From Naegleria gruberi (Eukaryota), in assembly GCA_000004985.1 (NCBI GenBank), contig GG738847.1: a stretch of DNA of 64,000 bases, one strand, 5' to 3'. The translations under genes and the position numbers were made by a program. This document shows positions 13,535 through 49,403 of the stretch, one piece after another (positions within the stretch are counted from its first letter, which is position 1; every line of letters starts with the position of its first letter). The notes beneath the pieces are model-generated. The model saw only the letters and a list, made by a program, of their open reading frames with translations, ran no database searches and was not told where the DNA came from.

Positions 13535-13607
13535 TCCCCCTTAGCTCAGTCGGTAGAGCGTCAGACTGTTAATCTGCAGGTCGGTGGTTCGAGCCCACCA
13601 GGGGGAG
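13535..13607 (+). tRNA. tRNA-Asn (anticodon GUU)
   Basis: 7-bp acceptor stem TCCCCCT/AGGGGGA, D-arm GCTCAGTCGGTAGAGC, anticodon loop CTGTTAA, T-arm GGTGGTTCGAGCCCACC, discriminator G. A T-run (GTTTTTGT) follows downstream. Confidence 0.9.
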
Positions 13608-27157: not shown

Positions 27158-28264
27158 ATGACTGATGAAAATCCACCACTCATCATTGATAATGGTTCCT
27201 CTCTAATGAAAGCTGGTTTTTCTGGTGATGAAGCTCCACTTGCAGTCTTTCCCACAGTAACTTCACAACAAAAAGTAGCACCCATCCTCCTTTCAATGGG
27301 CTCTATCACAACATACGTTGGAGATAATGCATTGTGTAGGAGGGGTATTAATGTTTACAAATATCCAATTGATCGTGGATTGATTACTGATTGGTATCAT
27401 ATGGAAAAGATATGGCATCATACATTTTATAATGAGTTAAGAGTTGCTCCTGAAGAACATGAAGTATTATTGATGGGAATGCCATTAAATTCAAAGGAAA
27501 CGAAAGCGAAAATGGCACAAATCATGTTTGAAAGTTTTAAGGTGCAAGGTTTGTGTTTGGCAAATCAATGTGCCATGTCAATATTTGCAAGTGGTAGAAT
27601 GACAGGTGTAGTATTGGGATCAGGAGATGGCGTCACTAATTCAGTACCTATTTATGAAGGATATGCCCTATCACATGCCACCAATAGATTGGAATTAGGA
27701 GGCAAAGACCTGACAGATTATTTGAAGAAAATGTTAATGGAACGAGGATATAATTTCAACACCATGGGCGAAACTGCAATAGTCATGGATATGAAGGAAA
27801 AAACTGGTTATGTTGCCAGTAATTTTGTGGAAGAAACAGCGAAAGAAAGTTTATATGAATTACCAGATGGAAATGTAATTTCACTTGGAAGGGAAAGATT
27901 CAAAACTACTGAGATATTATTTCAACCAAATCTTATTGGAATGGAGGTTGCTGGAATTCATGAAAATATTTTCACTTCTATTAGAAAGTCAGATTTGGAT
28001 ATTAGAAAGGAATTGTATTCGAATATTGTTCTTTCAGGAGGATCGACATTGTTTAATGGAATTGTTGAACGATTGAATAATGAGTTGAGAGAAATATCTC
28101 CCTCCACAATGAAAATTCGAATAACAGCACCACCAGAAAGAAAGTACAGTACATGGATTGGTGGCAGTATTTTCTCCCAATTGCCAACTTTCCAATCAAC
28201 TTGCATAACAGCACAGGAATATGCAGATGTTGGTAGTGCAATTGTTCATAGGAAATGTTTCTAG
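27158..28264 (+). CDS. divergent actin-like protein (about 50% identical to conventional actin by eye)
   Basis: Full-length actin fold: IIDNGSS..KAGFSGDEAP, DSGDGVTNSVPIYEGY, LSGGSTLF, KIRITAPPERKYSTWIGGSI, and the canonical C-terminus IVHRKCF. aaaaaaaATG start. Confidence 0.85.
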   Translation: MTDENPPLIIDNGSSLMKAGFSGDEAPLAVFPTVTSQQKVAPILLSMGSITTYVGDNALCRRGINVYKYPIDRGLITDWYHMEKIWHHTFYNELRVAPEEHEVLLMGMPLNSKETKAKMAQIMFESFKVQGLCLANQCAMSIFASGRMTGVVLGSGDGVTNSVPIYEGYALSHATNRLELGGKDLTDYLKKMLMERGYNFNTMGETAIVMDMKEKTGYVASNFVEETAKESLYELPDGNVISLGRERFKTTEILFQPNLIGMEVAGIHENIFTSIRKSDLDIRKELYSNIVLSGGSTLFNGIVERLNNELREISPSTMKIRITAPPERKYSTWIGGSIFSQLPTFQSTCITAQEYADVGSAIVHRKCF

Positions 28265-28353: not shown

Positions 28354-28471
28354 GGCTACGGCCATATCACGATGAATGCACCTCATCCCGTCCGATTTGA
28401 GAAGTTAAGCATCGTCGAGCCACATCAGTACTGAGGTTGGAGACAACTTGGGAACCTGTGGTGCTGTAGTC
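28354..28471 (+). rRNA. 5S ribosomal RNA (copy 1) with a downstream T6 terminator
   Basis: GGCTACGGCCATATCACG...CATCCCGTCCGATTTGAGAAGTTAAGC...GTACTGAGG...GGGAACCTGTGGTGCTGTAGTC followed by TTTTTT. The 3' end can pair with the 5' end (helix I). Upstream at 28290-28350 is a degenerate partial copy of the 5S 5' end (cggttatatcacgatgaa). Confidence 0.9.
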
Positions 28472-28854
28472 TTTTTTGAATCTGTGAATACTGTAACAAT
28501 ATTTGAAGACTCAAACTCGAAATTTGAAGGTTTATTGATCAACCACAAGTTTCTATTTCTAAATAGATAAAATTCAAAGGTGATATATAGATGGTCACGT
28601 AGCAAGCTTTTCTAAACAACAAACTTACTGAACCAACAATCAATAGATTCGTTGCCTTCACTGTTCATACAGTCAAAGACTGTAGCGGGATAGTCGCCAT
28701 ATTCCTGGCAGGCTTCCCGTCTTAATTGTTTTACAAATGAAATAACAAACTTAATTTTATGGAGACTCACACTTTATTCTAATGTTAAATAATAATTAAA
28801 AGCAAAATTGTTTCAAAAATTTAGCCTTTTTAAAGAAATTGATTTCTGTTTCAA

Positions 28855-29259
28855 TTATTTACGCTTGTAAATATCAACTTTCTTATTCTTCTTGCCACCT
28901 CTTCTATTCTTTCTATTCTTTCTATTCTTCTTTCTGTAAGTGTCAATTCTTCTCTTCTTATTAAATCTTCTCTTCTTTCCATAAACATCAATCTTCTTTC
29001 TGATAATTCTCTTCTTTCCATATCTCTTCCATCCTCTTCTCTTTCTTCCATAGGTGTCAATGTACTTGTTGAGCTTTCTATTGTTCTTTCTCTTCTTGAG
29101 TCTGTATTTCTTGAGATTTCTCTTCTTGTTATTCTTTCTAATGTATAAGGAAAGTGTTGAGGCAGCAGTTGATTCTTCTGCAGAAACTCCAGAAGTGAAC
29201 GAAAGTGCAAGAATTGCCAAAGTCAAGGCAATCAATAAGATTGAAACGAATCTTTTCAT
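28855..29259 (-). CDS. small secreted, extremely basic repeat protein (134 aa)
   Basis: aaaaaATG start, then signal peptide MKRFVSILLIALTLAILALSFTSGVSA. The mature region is about 50% Lys/Arg with periodic (I/V)D(T/V/I)Y(G/R)KK(R/N)R units. The longer track ORF upstream of this ATG does not look coding. Confidence 0.6.
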   Translation of the reverse strand: MKRFVSILLIALTLAILALSFTSGVSAEESTAASTLSLYIRKNNKKRNLKKYRLKKRKNNRKLNKYIDTYGRKRRGWKRYGKKRIIRKKIDVYGKKRRFNKKRRIDTYRKKNRKNRKNRRGGKKNKKVDIYKRK

Positions 29260-30023
29260 TTTTTGTTTTTTTGATTGTGTTTGAGAAGTGAAACATGTTT
29301 CAGTATTTAAATGTTTGAAAAGAATAGTTTGATTAGTATATTGATTTTTATGGTATGATTGAAGATGAATGATTTTCCATAAAGAGAGTAGCCACAGATT
29401 TTGGACATTGTACATTTGGTCTTTGTTAATCGGTGCGGATAATTGAACAAGAACAGAATGAAAGAACTTCAATGGTTGGATTGTGCACAAAGATGTGGAA
29501 TATCTTGGAATGAAAAAAATTCCAATGTTTAAAGAACGAAAGGACTGTAAAGAAGTACTACAGTTGGTTACAAAAAAAGTCCATATTGAGTTTACAATGA
29601 CTCTATTCAACGATTATTAAAGGCACAAGACAAGTTTCAGATTGTTACAATCAAAGAAACTATAAAGAGTTGAATTTCTGGTTAAGGTATGTTGAAAAAT
29701 AGAGACAATATTGAAACTGAATTAATCTGATATACATCGTGCTTTTTATATTCTTGTTCTTAAAAGTGCTAGTAGTTTCAAGTTGTCAAATGAAGAGTGG
29801 GAATCCTCTCTTTAACTTTCGTACAGTTTGAAAATGAGATAAACAAGAGGTGCTTACCACTTGAGAACAAGCATTGTTATAAATGTTTGTTGTTGATTTC
29901 GGTTGGTTTATGAGGATGAAAAGGAAATATCAACTATTCTGAAAGAGAAAATTCACAACTTTTATACTAATTTACATTTATTAATCATCACAAGCACGAA
30001 CGATATTAATCAAAATAGAATTT

Positions 30024-30203
30024 TCATTTGGTTTTTACATCTCCTCTCTTTACAGCAGCCGATCTTTTATCAACATTTCCATTTTTGGTGAGAAGAACAT
30101 CACCACTTTTAACAGCAGCTGATCTTTTGTCAACGGAACCACTAGATGTGAATCTGACTTCGTTGTTTTTTGCTGCAGAGCTTCTCTTGTCGACGTTACT
30201 CAT
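30024..30203 (-). CDS. possible small repeat peptide (59 aa; three or four VDKRSAAVK.GDV repeats)
   Basis: ATG in an aaaaaaaaaATG context. The peptide and the DNA are internally repetitive. It could instead be a non-coding repeat. Confidence 0.3.
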   Translation of the reverse strand: MSNVDKRSSAAKNNEVRFTSSGSVDKRSAAVKSGDVLLTKNGNVDKRSAAVKRGDVKTK

Positions 30204-30486: not shown

Positions 30487-31599
30487 CTAGAAATATCTTC
30501 CCTGAACAATTCGAGGTCCAGTTTCTTCATATTCCTCCTTTGTTATCCAATGTTGTTGAAACATTCCAAGTGTTGAAAGTATTGATCCTCCAATCCAAAC
30601 TGAATATTTTCTCTCAGGTGGAGTAATGATATTGACATGAAATGTTGAGGGAGCTAGCTCTACAATTTCCTTTTTCAATCTCCTTTCCAATCCTTTCAAC
30701 ATGGTATTTCCACCAGAAAGAACAATACTCCCATACAAATTCCTTCTCATTTCGACATCACATTTAACGACAGAGTGAACGGCCTTCTCATGAATTCCTA
30801 GAGAATCCTTTCCAATTAAATTTGTTTGAAAAAGTGCTTCTGGACAAGTGAATAATTCCTTTCCAATATTAATTACATTCCCATCGGGTAGTTCATAATT
30901 CTGTTCCACCACTTTTTCATTTTCATAATCATATGCCACATGGCAGAGTTTCTCCTTAATATCTCTAACAATTTCCTTTTTAGTAAAGGGTGAATATTCC
31001 AAATCTTTCAACAAGGTCATTAAATATTGAGTCAAATCGCTACCAGCCAAATCCATATACGAAAGTGCTGTATTAGGATACCCTTCATAAACAGGAACTG
31101 TAAGTGTCATGCCATCTCCTGAATCCACCACAAGACCAGTTGTCCTCCCAGATGCATACAGAGCCAGCACTGAATGATTAGCAACATACATGGCTGGAAC
31201 TCCAAAGGTTTCGAACATGATTCGTGTCATCTTTTCTCGATTTGCTTTCGGATTCAATGGTGATTCAGTCAACATGATGGGATGATGCTCCGGAGCAATA
31301 CTCAATTCATTGTAAAATATGAAATGCCACAATTTTTCCATATCTTCCCAATTCGAAACTAAACCACGTTCAATAGGATTTGATAAATCCAACAGTCCTC
31401 TCTTTGATTGAGCTTCATCACCAACAAATACACTCCGTTGACCTAAGAGAGAAGAAAGTTTGGAATTTTGTTTTGGTTTTCCAATAATTGATGGCAAAAC
31501 ACATCTCGGAGCATCGTCACCTCCAAAACCAGCTTTTGATACTCCAGAACCGATATCAATGATCACTGGTTGAGGTTCTTCATCATTATGATGTGACAT
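30487..31599 (-). CDS. divergent actin-like protein (closer to actin than the 27158 paralog)
   Basis: Full actin fold: [75 protein letters not shown]. The C-terminus IVQGRYF deviates from canonical HRKCF. Confidence 0.85.
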
Positions 31600-31711: not shown

Positions 31712-31784
31712 TGCCGACACCAGGGATCGAACCAGGGACCTTAAGATCTTCAGTCTTACGCTCTCCCAACTGAGCTATGTCGGC
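31712..31784 (-). tRNA. tRNA-Phe (anticodon GAA)
   Basis: The reverse complement reads GCCGACATAGCTCAGTTGGGAGAGCGTAAGACTGAAGATCTTAAGGTCCCTGGTTCGATCCCTGGTGTCGGCA, nearly identical to eukaryotic tRNA-Phe. A T-run follows the 3' end. Track ORF 31650..31835 overlapping it is spurious. Confidence 0.95.
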
Positions 31785-44295: not shown

Positions 44296-47200
44296 TTATT
44301 GTTGATCTTGTTGCATGGATGGTGGTTGATAGACTTCATCTTGTTGCAATAACAATTCGTCGTCTTCATCTGATTCACTTTCTTCACCATCTTCGAGAAC
44401 TTGAATTTCACTTTCTTGTTGGAAGACATAGTCACCAGGCTTCTTTCTTTCACTCTTCAATTTCTTCAACTTTCTCTTACCCTTTCTAATGTAAACTCTA
44501 GTGAGAGTCTTGATTCTTTCGACAGCTTGTGGATCTCTCATAACCAAACCAACGAATGATAATACCAAGAAAATGATAGTGATAGCAATCAAGATAATTG
44601 GTGAAATATAGTAGGCCTTATAGGAGAAACCATAATTTTCCAAAGCAGTAGCAACATTTTGATTACTTTCTTGATACTTTCTAATTTCAACAGTGTACAT
44701 TAATTCGACAGCCCATCTCACTGGAGAAGAACAAACCAAAACCAATGTATACCATTCCTTAGACATGGTACGAACTGTTGGTTGAACACCACCCAACAAG
44801 GCACACAAAATAATGTACATTACACCAACAAATTCAGCATGAGTTCTTTGAACGAAAACTGAAATGAAATAGCCAAGAGAACTGAAAACAATTTCGAATA
44901 ATAAGAAGAGTCCATAGTATGTGTAAAATTCAGCTTCAGGATTAACGAGGATATACCAGAAAGTAACAAAGACCAATGGATAGATCAACAAGGAAGGAAT
45001 TTCACCAGTCAATTTACCAAGGAAGTAACTCATCTTGTTGATACCATTCTGAGCTTCACGTCTATAGAGTTCCTTATCAGCACCAAAACATTTGAGTGAA
45101 GATTGCATAGCAGCAATGGCAAGAGCAGAAACTGTAACAATACTCATTGGTGCAATCTTATCAATTCTTGGCAATGAACATTGATTACTAATAAATGTTG
45201 GACACAACTTTTGAAGAGTTGATGAAAGAGGACCAATAAAGTCCATGTTAAAGTAGAAACCTCCAATAATTACAGCAAGAGCAAAGTGGAAGAAGAAATC
45301 AAAGAAGACACCCTTGTAGTGACGACTCAATTGAAGCAAAGCACGAAGAGAGAATAAGAGATATTGACCCAAGAACGCAATTGGCTTTCTTTGTCTTTCC
45401 TTAGCAACTTCACTGCCCAACAAAACTTGTTGTGGATCAATAACAGAAGCACCAACTTCTTCATCATCTTCTTGTTCTTGTTCTGATTGTTGAGTTTCAT
45501 TACCATTTCTTGATTTGAGCCATTTCTTTTCATTTTCTTCCTTCTTCAAGTCCCACAAGTGCAACAAACGTTCTGGTTCAAAGTTTGGATCACCAGGTCT
45601 TTCAACATTACCCAAACAAACATCAACAAAAAAGTCTGGAGGATTTTCATAGTTTGGACATTTGAAGCCAATTTCTTCAAAGAATCTCAAAGCATCCTTG
45701 GTTGGACCATTGTAAACAATGCCACCATTCTTACCCATGATAATACAATCGTCAAAGAGGAGGAATACATCATTTCTTGGTCTGAGCATGGTAGAAACAA
45801 CTGTAGTACCACTTTCAGCAGCCAACTTGAAGGCCTTACACAAGAATTTCTTTCTTTCGAGTGGAATTTCATCGAATGGATTATCGACAAATAAACAAAC
45901 TGGATCAGCAACCATTTCAAGAGCCATGTTAACAAAGACTCTGAGTTCTTCATCGAGACCGTGCTTCTTTGATTTACCAATTGTATCATACATAAAGTTT
46001 TCAATACCCAAAACCTTACATGTCTTTTCAACACGTCTACCAACTTGACTGTATGTATAATAACTTGGCAAACGAGAGTGACCAGCAAATCTCAACAATT
46101 CGTGAACCTTCAATTCCTTAGCCATATCAAGTTGCTTTGGGGCAAAGCTGATAATATTTCTGAATTCGTGCGGATCCTTAATTTGTTCATTAATCATAAT
46201 TTTACCATGAACGAAACCCAAGTGATGTCTACCAGAAAGAGTATTGAGCAATGCAGAAGTTGCTTCAGAATCAACACCAATAATACATGTAGTTCTTCCG
46301 TGATAGACACGACCAGTGACACCTTCGAAAATAACTTCTTCACTCTTCTTTCTGATATATGACAAATCCTCAAAGGCATAATCAATTGTAAAGTTCTTCT
46401 TTGAGAATGGTGGTTCATTGACGAGAGAACCAGTACTATCATAATTGAATTGTTCATTTCCTTGAATAAAGTTGGCAATATTAATACCAATGTTGGCAAG
46501 ACCATTTTGTCCTGAGATTTCTTGGTCTTGTTTAATCTTCTTTTGCTTCATCTTCTTCTTCTTGTAAGAGGCAGTGACACATCTGACAACAACGAAAGTG
46601 ACCAAAACGAGGAAGACAACAACGAACATTAACAAGATACCCAAATAGAAGGATTGTTGCTTGGCAGAACCTTCTGGACAATAGGAGAACCATTGACAAC
46701 GTTTAGGATAAGTAGAGCCAGCAGCACAGTGATAACCAGATGGACACAACAACATTGAGTTGGTATTAGGGCAATAATAACCAGCAGTACAAGCAAGTGG
46801 TTCCTTAGTACCTCTTGGGCAATAATAACCATCTTCACACAAGACTTTGCTTGACAAGGTTGGACAATAGTAACCTTCTGGACAATAGTGCTCATCACTA
46901 CCATAAGTACCAGTTGGACAGTATTGAGTTCTGTTACCAATTTGTTCCAAACATGGAGTTGGAGTCATAGAGTATGGAGTTTCACAATAGTTCAATGCAG
47001 GACAAGCATTTACGAGAGTAGTGCCTGTAGTGTCAAGTCCTTGAGTAGCTAATGGACAATATTGACCATTTCTACAAGTGTATAATTGACTTCTAGTTTT
47101 TCTTGCAAGATAACCTGGTGGTACTGGAATAGACATCAAAGGGTTCAAACAAATTTGACCATCAGGACATCTTTGCTCAGTAGAGGAACCTTCAATTCCA

Positions 47201-49403
47201 CAAGTTGTTTCAAATGTTGAGGAAGGTGAACAAGCAGTAGGTGCAGTCATGGCCGAATCTTTACATTTGAATCCAACAGGACAAGGTCTTCTACGACCTT
47301 CGTTATTGGTTGGACAGTAAAATCCTGGTTCACATTTAAAGACCATTGTTGGTCTAATTGTGTGATAACCAGCAGAAATAGAAACAGTATTGGCGTAACC
47401 TTCAGCAAGAGTTTTCCAGAATCACCATATCTTGGACAAGTCCAACCTCCATTACACATTGAGAAGTAACCAATAAAATCGAATGCAGTATACTTGGTTG
47501 GATATTTCTTACAAGCTTCAGTAAATTTAGTCAATGAAGATGGAGGATTTGAAGAAGCCAACAAGGTGCAAATATCTTGCAATCTTATTCTGGCATCAAT
47601 ATCAAAGGCCTTTCTAGAAAGGACAGCAAAGATGTGTTGTGCATTTTCAGAAACATAAATGTCATTAATTTTACCATCACTGTTCAATAATGCAGTTTGT
47701 TGCAATGTAAATAAGCTTGAACTAGAAGTGGAAGCAGAAGTGTCAGTACAAGCATACTCTTGGAAGGAAAATACTTCAATACTTTCTCTTGTGGCAATGT
47801 TGATGGTGTGATAAAATGTTGAATAGGCATCAGTGATAGCAGTGTCACTTGTTTTGTACATTCCAATAACCATCTTTGAAGGAACAGCTGATGTGGTTTT
47901 CAAATCTGATTCCTTATTAGGTCTGTTAGTACAGGTTCCACTCTTTGAGTATTGAGGTTTGGTAGTTGATGTATAAGAAGTTGAGCATGTTGTGTCAGCT
48001 GGTATACCAACGGCCTTGTATATGCCAGCTGGGTCAGAACTAATATCAGTTACATCCTGACTTGCCATTTCTGGAAGGTTAAAGACAAATAATCTTGGGC
48101 CGAAAGCATTTGCAGAGGCTGTAGTTGAAGCAACACCAACAGCAACCCAAACAGATTGGGAAGTCTTAGCAAGAGTACCATAACATTCAGTAAATGCACT
48201 CACAGAATAAATACTTTCACCAGAGACACCATGTGTATAAATGATTGAGGTCTTCTTTGTTAAGTCAACAGGTGAGTCATTTGGCGTACCAACGAGTTGA
48301 ATCAAATTGACTTGTGACTTGGATTGAATTAAAAGAAGAGGTCTACTGGCTTTAACTGAATTACAGTCAACCTTTGATGAATATGTTGGGTCAGCACCAA
48401 ATTGTCCATGAGCAAAACCGAAAATCTTTCTTTCCTCAGTTTGGTCAGCAAATGCCCATTTATAAAGTGTAGAACCCTTGTAAATGATAATACCATTGGT
48501 AGAAGTAGAAGTACCATATGAGAGAACAGCCATATGAGTTGCAGTTCCAAGAGTATCAATGTAGGCAATTGTTTGCAAATCTTGCACAAATTCGCTTGAG
48601 GACAATTTGGTTGTTGTATCAATGGTAAGAGCAATAGTTTTAGAAGATGAAACTGTGAGAGTACCAGTAGTATCCAATTTAAGAACCAATAATGTTTGAG
48701 TTGACAAGGTAACATAAATTGTTGCCTCAGTAGAGCTAGTTCTATAGACAGCCATCTTACTTGGTTTATCTGTTAAAGCAGTTTTAGCATCAAGTACTTG
48801 ATAAGAGTAGGCCAATTGTTCAGTAGTCATATCAAGAACAAGCAAATGTCTATTGGTCAATACTAGTAAATATTGTTTGGCACCATCAGCTGACATTTCC
48901 AAAGGTTTAGCAGCTCTAACAAAGAAACAACGATTGTTTTCGGATTGTGATGATTGATCAGTAGTGGTAACATTTCCTCCAGAATAGTCTTCCTTATAAA
49001 TTTTAACAATATTATCAACATCTTGATCTTTCACACAAATCATGTTATTTTCAGTTGATGTAATTGGTGTCTTGTCTGTTATTTTGGTATATAAACATTG
49101 TGCACCAGTGGCATCACAATTAAAAATGTCAGGATCTCTAAAAGTGATTGGTTGACTTGCTCTAAAGTTATTATATGTACACCATGATGGTCTTGAAGTG
49201 GATAAAGATGGATCACATAATCCAAAGGCTGATTTAACTTGTTCACCAGATAATGCAGCACACCAGTCTGGAGGTGTGGCAGCAAGAGTTGAAGCACAAC
49301 TCAAAGTAATCATCAACAAGATGGAGACGATTAAATATCGAACAGCAACACGTTGTTGTGCTTGTCCTTTCAACAATGGTCTATTATCATTACGTATCAT
49401 CAT
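44296..49403 (-). CDS. giant secreted/type I membrane protein: large extracellular domain plus Cys-rich GYYCP/EGF-like repeats plus a degenerate ABCG-type module, with an apparent 1-nt frameshift at 47412-47415
   Basis: ORF 47247..49403 has a signal peptide (..LLMITLSCASTLAATP) and a 700-aa Thr/Ser-rich ectodomain. ORF 44296..47346 continues in a different frame with CxxC/GYYCP repeats, a TM helix followed by KKKKMKQKK, an ABC NBD with degenerate Walker A (IIGVDSEATSALLNTLSGR), degenerate signature and Walker B (LFVDNPFDEIP), and a six-helix ABCG-type TMD. The two frames would fuse if the run GGAAAAC (minus strand) had one more A. Confidence 0.7.

Follow-up and report, generated by a model that had tools for sequence, protein, structure and literature searches.

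An unannotated member of a lineage-restricted family of predicted polybasic pre-proteins in Naegleria gruberi

Between two divergent actin-like genes of Naegleria gruberi, in a window of 64,000 nucleotides (the whole stretch of DNA analyzed here, from contig GG738847.1), lies an uninterrupted open reading frame of 134 codons plus TAA (28855-29259, minus strand; ATG at 29259, TAA at 28855-28857) that, judged by its pattern of conservation, is a functional protein-coding gene without annotation. Sequence comparison assigns it to a small, lineage-restricted pre-protein family (~110-140 aa), of which it is the sixth copy in the genome, and its 134-aa product reads, in order, MKRFVSILLIALTLAILALSFTSGVSA (residues 1-27), EESTAASTLSLYI (residues 28-40), and a tail running from RKNNKK to KVDIYKRK. 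By analogy with known cationic proteins, the reading we favor, at a probability of roughly 45%, is that the product would be a secreted or lumen-delivered disordered polycation, acting whole or in large fragments on polyanionic targets. The family is an uncharacterized orphan family with the focal gene as a new unannotated member; it falls within the secreted cationic low-complexity proteins, a broad class already known, in which its punctuation by Tyr motifs is unusual. The features of the locus are as follows, L001, L002, and L003 being relatives on three environmental contigs.

28855-29259, minus strand: complete coding sequence of an N. gruberi polybasic pre-protein family member without annotation (paralogs 74-87% identical; dN/dS 0.24 against L002)
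29179-29259, minus strand: predicted signal peptide, residues 1-27, predicted cut after VSA (hydropathy, the (-3,-1) rule, and an invariant core; heuristic)
29140-29178, minus strand: acidic/neutral spacer, residues 28-40, with conserved EE and [ST]STLS.YI (alignments)
28858-29139, minus strand: polybasic tail, residues 41-134 (K+R at 54%, Glu absent; purines make up 77% of the coding strand)
29050-29061, minus strand: motif 1, IDTY, residues 67-70, then GRKRR (in all N. gruberi copies; lost in L001 and L003)
28981-28992, minus strand: motif 2, IDVY, residues 90-93, then GKKRR (deleted in L001 and L003)
28936-28947, minus strand: motif 3, IDTY, residues 105-108, in KKRRIDTY[R/G]KK (in all members; the best-conserved motif of the family)
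28867-28878, minus strand: motif 4, VDIY, residues 128-131, in the conserved C-terminus KK[VF]D[ILF]YK[RK]K-stop (alignments)
28902-28929, minus strand: 9-nt tandem repeat in three units, coding NRKNRKNRK (length varies among paralogs, with 3n-base indels here)
28773-28778, minus strand: AATAAA, putative polyadenylation signal 77 nt past the stop (a related element lies downstream of the L002 coding sequence)
29305-29311, minus strand: TTTAAAT, putatively TATA-like, ~50 nt upstream of the ATG (identical heptamer ~50 nt upstream of the L002 MKR ATG)
29397-29424, minus strand: 28-nt upstream block (AAAGACCAAATGTACAATGTCCAAAATC), candidate regulatory element (conserved with the paralogous locus L002)

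After the predicted cleavage, 107 residues would remain, comprising 30 Lys, 21 Arg, 11 Asn, 8 Tyr, and only 6 Asp plus Glu, with a calculated pI of 11.7 and a net charge of ~+45. The resulting K+R share of 47.7% agrees with the original prediction, which had put the mature region at about 50% Lys/Arg and had correctly described both the coordinates and the KNRKNRKNRR run (residues 111-120). The same share rises to 54% in the 94-residue tail, which holds 11 Asn, 7 Tyr, and neither Glu nor Cys, while the mature part has 3 Ser, none of them in the tail. On reading the sequence, we found the protein to be free of Cys and of N-x-S/T sequons and to lack any Ser/Thr-rich region for glycosylation. The Tyr-containing polybasic repeats and short acidic linker described earlier correspond to a Tyr-punctuated polycation behind a 13-residue acidic/neutral spacer.

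The exact product was not found in a collection of 15 billion proteins in which the products of the flanking genes are present, and the best database match, from another scaffold, reaches no more than 84% identity; hence, the focal copy is unannotated. The flanking ORFs are exact matches to EFC49553, EFC49554, EFC49757, and EFC49758 of N. gruberi NEG-M (941,567-bp scaffold). Compared over 132 codons with L002, an environmental genomic contig carrying the ortholog of NAEGRDRAFT_71365, the window copy shows a dS of 0.29, a dN of 0.07, and a dN/dS of 0.24. DNA identity to L002 is ~95% in the tail and ~92% in the predicted signal peptide versus 60-70% in the flanks, and all indels within the coding sequence are multiples of three. 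All homologs begin with MKR, and L001, L002, and L003 each have an in-frame stop 5-15 codons upstream of this start, which identifies the ATG at 29259, the start named in the original prediction, as the conserved one.

Codon usage points the same way. Lys is encoded by AAG at 27 of 31 positions (87%) in the focal gene versus 66 of 116 (57%) in four neighboring genes (p=0.0016), Arg is encoded by AGA at 21 of 22 positions, and the longest A-run is 4, against a mean of 7.7 when Lys codons are re-drawn at the neighbors' frequencies (P=0.0002). Poly(A) tracks stall ribosomes, and their avoidance is what selection on translating a poly-Lys protein would produce. Further, the coding strand of the tail is 77% purine and codes Lys, Arg, and Gly but never Glu, which suggests that negative charge has been selected against.

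That no functional gene exists here, the frame having arisen by chance in low-complexity, purine-rich DNA or belonging to a duplicate in decay, is scarcely credible. Such a reading would suit the gene's absence from the published annotation and the AG-rich simple sequence of the tail, where an alternative frame is open (28851-29210), but it conflicts with the dN/dS value, with a reading frame intact in 9/9 family sequences (environmental ones included), with the conservation of start codon, predicted signal peptide, and C-terminus, with the avoidance of poly(A) tracks, and with elements conserved with the paralog both upstream and downstream. The coding claim of the original prediction is therefore upheld by the dN/dS of 0.24, the conserved start, the in-frame indels, and the poly(A) avoidance, which together indicate a genuine gene.

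Two further frames overlap or adjoin the gene. Ahead of the conserved ATG, the focal frame continues without a stop for another 117 codons (29260-29610, minus strand), with an in-frame ATG at 29412; we rejected this extension as coding, since it is closed in all homologous loci, and the in-frame stops of L001, L002, and L003 imply that the upstream opening is accidental. The alternative frame within the gene is an overlapping 119-aa Arg/Glu-rich ORF (28851-29210, minus strand, +1 frame), a by-product of the purine-rich coding sequence, and was rejected as it has neither the conserved start nor a signal peptide.

Homology between the window copy and L002 extends from ~-205 to ~+105 around the coding sequence, and the element AATAAA..TGTGAG..CCATAAAA follows the stop at both loci, while the neighboring genes differ. 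This combination of flank homology and different neighbors indicates that L002 is a dispersed duplicate with its own regulatory flanks and no conserved gene cluster.

The original prediction had recognized no homolog, which proved wrong, and had proposed a genome-wide search for paralogs, which was productive: a word-indexed search returned, at 74-87% identity, four proteins annotated in N. gruberi as "predicted proteins" (D2VQW0/NAEGRDRAFT_71365, D2VQ94/71069, D2VGK2/68008, and D2VHX6/68479) and one environmental protein at 47% identity. Similarity of the window copy to the N. gruberi paralogs is full-length, with E-values of 5e-58 to 2e-28. An exhaustive HMMER search, run with a family profile across 1.84 billion cluster representatives, recovered the family only (E <= 7e-19), adding D2VKU9/NAEGRDRAFT_50395 and bringing the annotated N. 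gruberi paralogs to five, all on scaffolds other than the focal one. By these comparisons the family comprises at least six N. gruberi copies plus the relatives on three environmental contigs, of which L001 and L003 are ~620-nt contigs from a more distant lineage.

Members share an architecture that opens with MKR and a hydrophobic core leading to a small-x-small site, continues with EE and STLS.YI, and closes with a polybasic tail that contains [IVF]D.Y units and terminates in KK[VF]D.YK[RK]K; alignments show the window copy to carry every one of these blocks. KKRRIDTY[RG]KK and the C-terminal KK[VF]D.YK[RK]K-stop are common to all members, and the EE straight after the predicted cleavage site, together with STLS, occurs in every member having that region. 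The number of motif units varies: D2VKU9 (which also has 8 His) carries five by regular expression and, on visual inspection of the alignment, a further FDTY, and two of the four units (motifs 1 and 2) are missing from L001 and L003.

Outside this set, the profile search found no homolog in other annotated Naegleria or heterolobosean proteomes, so that restriction to the N. gruberi lineage here means "not annotated elsewhere," and the family function would not be a conserved core one. JGI metagenomes, scanned with peptide patterns and with a DNA pattern of the signal peptide, yielded no relatives; the focal protein had no Pfam or NCBIfam match above the curated threshold (sub-threshold composition matches only), and a PDB sequence search gave no match at E <= 10. 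One paralog has a sub-threshold match to Pfam Protamine_P2 (E=0.024, 15.5 bits versus a cut-off of 25), a composition effect. We found no literature on the family gene IDs, nor the IDs themselves in the supplements of Naegleria omics papers that were searched. No second copy lies within the window: a tblastn match at 44440-44598 was rejected as chance, falling in a 1016-aa ORF (44296-47346, minus strand) that is Cys-rich in its N-terminal region and resembles a transporter in its body, where a transmembrane segment followed by the basic stretch KKGKRKLKKLK matches the focal protein at E=2.6e-4 without composition correction.

Beyond filling a gap in the N. gruberi reference annotation, the family analysis exposes three faulty models or calls. 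The public model of NAEGRDRAFT_50395/D2VKU9 is a chimera, with a family member in residues 1-~130 and a NOT2/3/5 C-terminal domain in residues 436-557 (E=4e-35). The model of NAEGRDRAFT_68479/D2VHX6 has an unrelated N-terminus (MVMGFRHTQTQTQTHTQ...) where the family signal peptide is expected, probably from a wrong start or exon. The ENA calls on L001 (110-601) and L003 (127-621) run through a TAG, which adds ~24 spurious residues; both proteins actually end in ...KKVD[FL]YKKK, in line with the other members.

L001 and L003 both stop 14 nt past AATAAA, and the first bases of L003 are an Illumina adapter tail. Both contigs may derive from mRNA, although breaks in the assembly where a repeated gene begins or ends would look the same. 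Their coding sequences differ by 14 nonsynonymous and 1 synonymous substitutions, and their 87-nt 3' flanks are identical; we gave this substitution excess no weight, as it is not significantly off neutral and the differences are clustered in one stretch.

Judged by sequence rules, the N-terminus has all the hallmarks of a signal peptide that can be cleaved, as had been predicted: an MKR n-region, an 18-residue hydrophobic core (mean Kyte-Doolittle hydropathy of 2.73 over residues 4-21), V-S-A at -3/-1, and acidic residues right after, with Ala27 conforming to the (-3,-1) rule. The core SILLIALTL.ILA is invariant in 8/8 aligned family sequences, and the predicted site (cut marked by a slash) reads V-S-A/E in the window copy and V-N-C/E or V-N-G/E in distant homologs. 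The charges flanking the core are +2 on the N-terminal and -2 on the C-terminal side. The positive-inside rule predicts topology from flanking charge, and it would here orient the protein N-in/C-out, so that the tail would be translocated. From these features we infer that residues 1-27 act as a cleavable signal peptide and that the EE and neutral spacer would hold positive charge away from the cleavage site.

The same segment might instead be retained as an uncleaved signal anchor, which would make the product a type II membrane protein with its tail on the cell surface or the lumenal face of a vesicle. Its invariant 18-residue core is more conserved than the tail, which would be unusual for a discarded segment. 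We nevertheless consider this very unlikely, given a textbook small-x-small site after the core in 7/8 aligned sequences (VSA/E, VNC/E, or VNG/E; the exception, NAEGRDRAFT_50395, reads RNVRG/EEE), the EE after the site in all members, and a 27-residue total with an MKR n-region, as is typical of cleaved signal peptides.

The tail contains four copies of the motif [IV]D[TVI]Y (at residues 67, 90, 105, and 128), a count reached in 0/20,000 composition-preserving shuffles, and every Asp of the tail (4/4) falls inside these units. YG[KR][KR] occurs in three copies (p=5e-5, shuffles); motif 4 lacks it, as does motif 3 in the window copy. Each of the four [IV]D[TVI]Y units is flanked by at least two basic residues, although such sites are expected from composition alone. 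The strict RX[KR]R consensus was observed once versus 1.8+-1.2 in shuffles, and 0-2 times per family member, never above expectation; dibasic pairs are in modest excess (31 versus 23.9+-2.6). Given that basic pairs are unavoidable at ~50% K/R and that the furin consensus is unenriched, the multibasic sites offer no evidence of processing, and the earlier description of them as typical convertase motifs does not hold, as composition alone yields such sites.

These units nonetheless bear on whether the protein could be a multi-copy peptide precursor resembling KEPs, yeast alpha-factor, or pro-TRH, in which kexin-like cuts at multibasic stretches and carboxypeptidase trimming would release 4-6 [IVF]D[TSVI]Y(G) tetra- or pentapeptides as signals or modification cores. 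The predicted signal peptide, the four short conserved units with at least two basic residues on each side, and a unit that is conserved while its copy number differs between members are all consistent with this, as is the strong enrichment of YG[KR][KR] (p=5e-5). Gly-dibasic is a classical amidation/processing site, and pro-TRH units end in Gly before a basic pair, as some units of the family do. KEPs are operationally defined by a signal peptide, at least three repeats, KR/RR/KK between them, and repeats making up at least 15% of the protein (PMC6339444). By that definition, the focal protein resembles these precursors in its (predicted) signal peptide, short pro-region, and several short units, at least three in number, bounded by KR/RR/KK, but the units are only 4-5 residues long, and with 16-20 of 134 residues (12-15%) the repeats lie at or below the cut-off.

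Unlike in those precursors, most of the protein here consists of its spacers, long and conserved polybasic stretches that appear to be under selection. There is also no sequence homology to them, the host is a heterolobosean, and processing of the focal protein is only hypothetical. L001 and L003 keep a tail of similar length but show only two motifs by eye (the VDFY of L001 falls outside the regular expression), the strict furin consensus is unenriched, and Gly never follows the last motif and follows the third in some members only. A review describes the amidating enzyme PAM (peptidylglycine alpha-amidating monooxygenase) as completely absent from excavates, naming Trypanosoma and not Naegleria (PMC6529398), which also counts against amidated products. 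No modifying-enzyme gene lies nearby, and the neighbors differ at L002, the one paralogous locus compared at the DNA level. A literature search found nothing relevant on kexin in Naegleria.

On balance, a precursor of this kind is unlikely. That it would represent a protist counterpart of the known multi-copy precursors, with multibasic cleavage into several [IVF]D.Y(G) peptides, possibly Tyr/Gly-modified, that would serve as secreted signals (e.g., of density, encystment, or differentiation) or as RiPP-like cores, is quite unlikely. If true, it would be the first such system in Heterolobosea, and processing to Tyr peptides would make it a rare case of peptide signaling or RiPP-like chemistry beyond animals, fungi, and plants.

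What the distant homologs retain speaks for the whole tail. L001 and L003 have a tail of similar length and ~43% K+R, with Arg switched to Lys, and the ~55 residues ahead of their conserved RIDTY unit are polybasic without a complete [IVF]D.Y unit. That they keep the polybasic tail while losing two of the four motifs suggests that the polycation itself, rather than short peptides between cleavage sites, is the selected product. AlphaFold2 run with the family alignment gave a single long low-confidence helix (mean pLDDT 61.5, pTM 0.22; residues 71-134 at pLDDT 46-53), so that the focal protein has, by this prediction, no confident fold.

In the secreted polycation that we favor, residues 1-27 would serve as a cleavable signal peptide whose cleavage site is shielded from positive charge by Glu-Glu and the neutral spacer, and the ~+45 tail would then reach the secretory/endolysosomal lumen or the cell exterior. 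In the least certain step, an intrinsically disordered mature product, whole or in large fragments, would bind polyanions by charge, whether these belong to bacterial prey (envelopes or nucleic acids, encountered in the phagosome or in the medium) or to a polyanionic matrix, with the regularly spaced hydrophobic/aromatic [IVF]D.Y patches giving extra contacts. Overall, this would amount to a protamine-, histatin-, or molluscidin-like cationic effector in a bacterivorous amoeba. The antimicrobial, adhesive, or nucleic-acid-binding function suggested in the original prediction remains plausible, and by analogy we infer that the most plausible targets are surfaces or nucleic acids of bacterial prey.

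In precursor families of antimicrobial peptides and toxins, conservation is known to be higher in the signal peptide than in the mature part. The family's signal segment is likewise better conserved than its mature region, in keeping with an effector: identity to the distant environmental homolog is 18/27 in the signal segment and 43/86 in the tail, the latter over an alignment with 24 gapped columns and inflated by composition. Against an effector, the 18-residue core is long enough for an uncleaved anchor, the hydrophobic residues of the tail are too few for a classical amphipathic antimicrobial peptide, and the Tyr-Gly-dibasic enrichment is unexplained by a purely electrostatic role.

Molluscidin (with Lys-rich dibasic repeats), histatins, and protamines are small, Cys-free, and disordered, with very high charge, dibasic runs, and some Tyr/His. 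The focal family is similarly small, Cys-free, highly charged, and by prediction disordered, with dibasic runs, and D2VKU9 has its 8 His, but there is no sequence similarity to any of them and the [IV]D.Y punctuation has no counterpart there. Diatom silaffins combine a signal peptide, a short acidic N-terminal part, and a repetitive Lys/Arg-rich domain with basic cleavage motifs, a layout that the focal protein resembles; unlike the focal protein with its few Ser, however, they are rich in Ser and carry heavy phosphorylation, their units end in RXL, and to our knowledge Naegleria makes no silica. Naegleriapores offer a same-genus precedent of antimicrobial effectors from multi-peptide precursors, although these are Cys-rich with a saposin-like fold, whereas the focal family has no Cys, predicted fold, or homology to them. 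Molluscidin has been cited as a conserved mollusc antimicrobial peptide (bioRxiv 10.64898/2026.08.23.746575).

Such a protein could also serve in a matrix, structurally or as an adhesive (for example in the cyst wall, in a pore plug, or in attachment to a substrate), where it would bind acidic polysaccharide by charge and be cross-linked through Tyr (dityrosine) or Lys. It would likewise be (predicted) secreted, disordered, and Lys/Tyr/Gly-containing, its Tyr positions are conserved and stand beside Lys/Gly (YGKK, KYGKK), a feature of Lys/Tyr adhesive proteins, and a multi-copy family suits bulk production. Proteins of the mussel foot type, however, contain roughly 15-30% Tyr, with Lys and Gly. 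At 8/107 residues (7.5%) of the mature part, Tyr in the focal protein is far below mussel and worm adhesives and Tyr-rich wall proteins, and with Cys, a glycosylation region, and sequons all missing we judge a matrix role to be quite unlikely also.

The family members are orphan, lineage-restricted extreme polycations with a predicted secretion signal in a bacterivorous relative of the pathogen N. fowleri and, if antibacterial or cell-penetrating effectors, would be a new source of such molecules.

The neighborhood itself (two actin-like genes and a 5S rRNA gene) gives no hint at function. The actin-family genes D2V0N9 (27158-28264, plus strand) and D2V0P1 (30487-31599, minus strand) are both intronless. 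The complete 5S rRNA gene (28354-28472, plus strand; Rfam RF00001, 105 bits, E=1.6e-23) lies ~380 nt past the focal stop on the opposite strand, isolated among protein-coding genes, and none is present at the paralogous locus L002. At 30027-30203 (minus strand), a 59-aa ORF (MSNVDKRSSAAKNNEVRFTSSGSVDKRSAAVKSGDVLLTKNGNVDKRSAAVKRGDVKTK) has three G.VDKRSAAVK.GDV repeats and an A-rich leader (aaaaaaaaATG) of the focal gene's kind; a search of 5.8 billion proteins found no homolog of it, and it matches no Pfam or NCBIfam family. It may be a further unannotated small gene, or chance. The window also contains tRNA-Phe(GAA) at 31712-31784 (minus strand) and tRNA-Asn(GTT) at 13535-13607 (plus strand).
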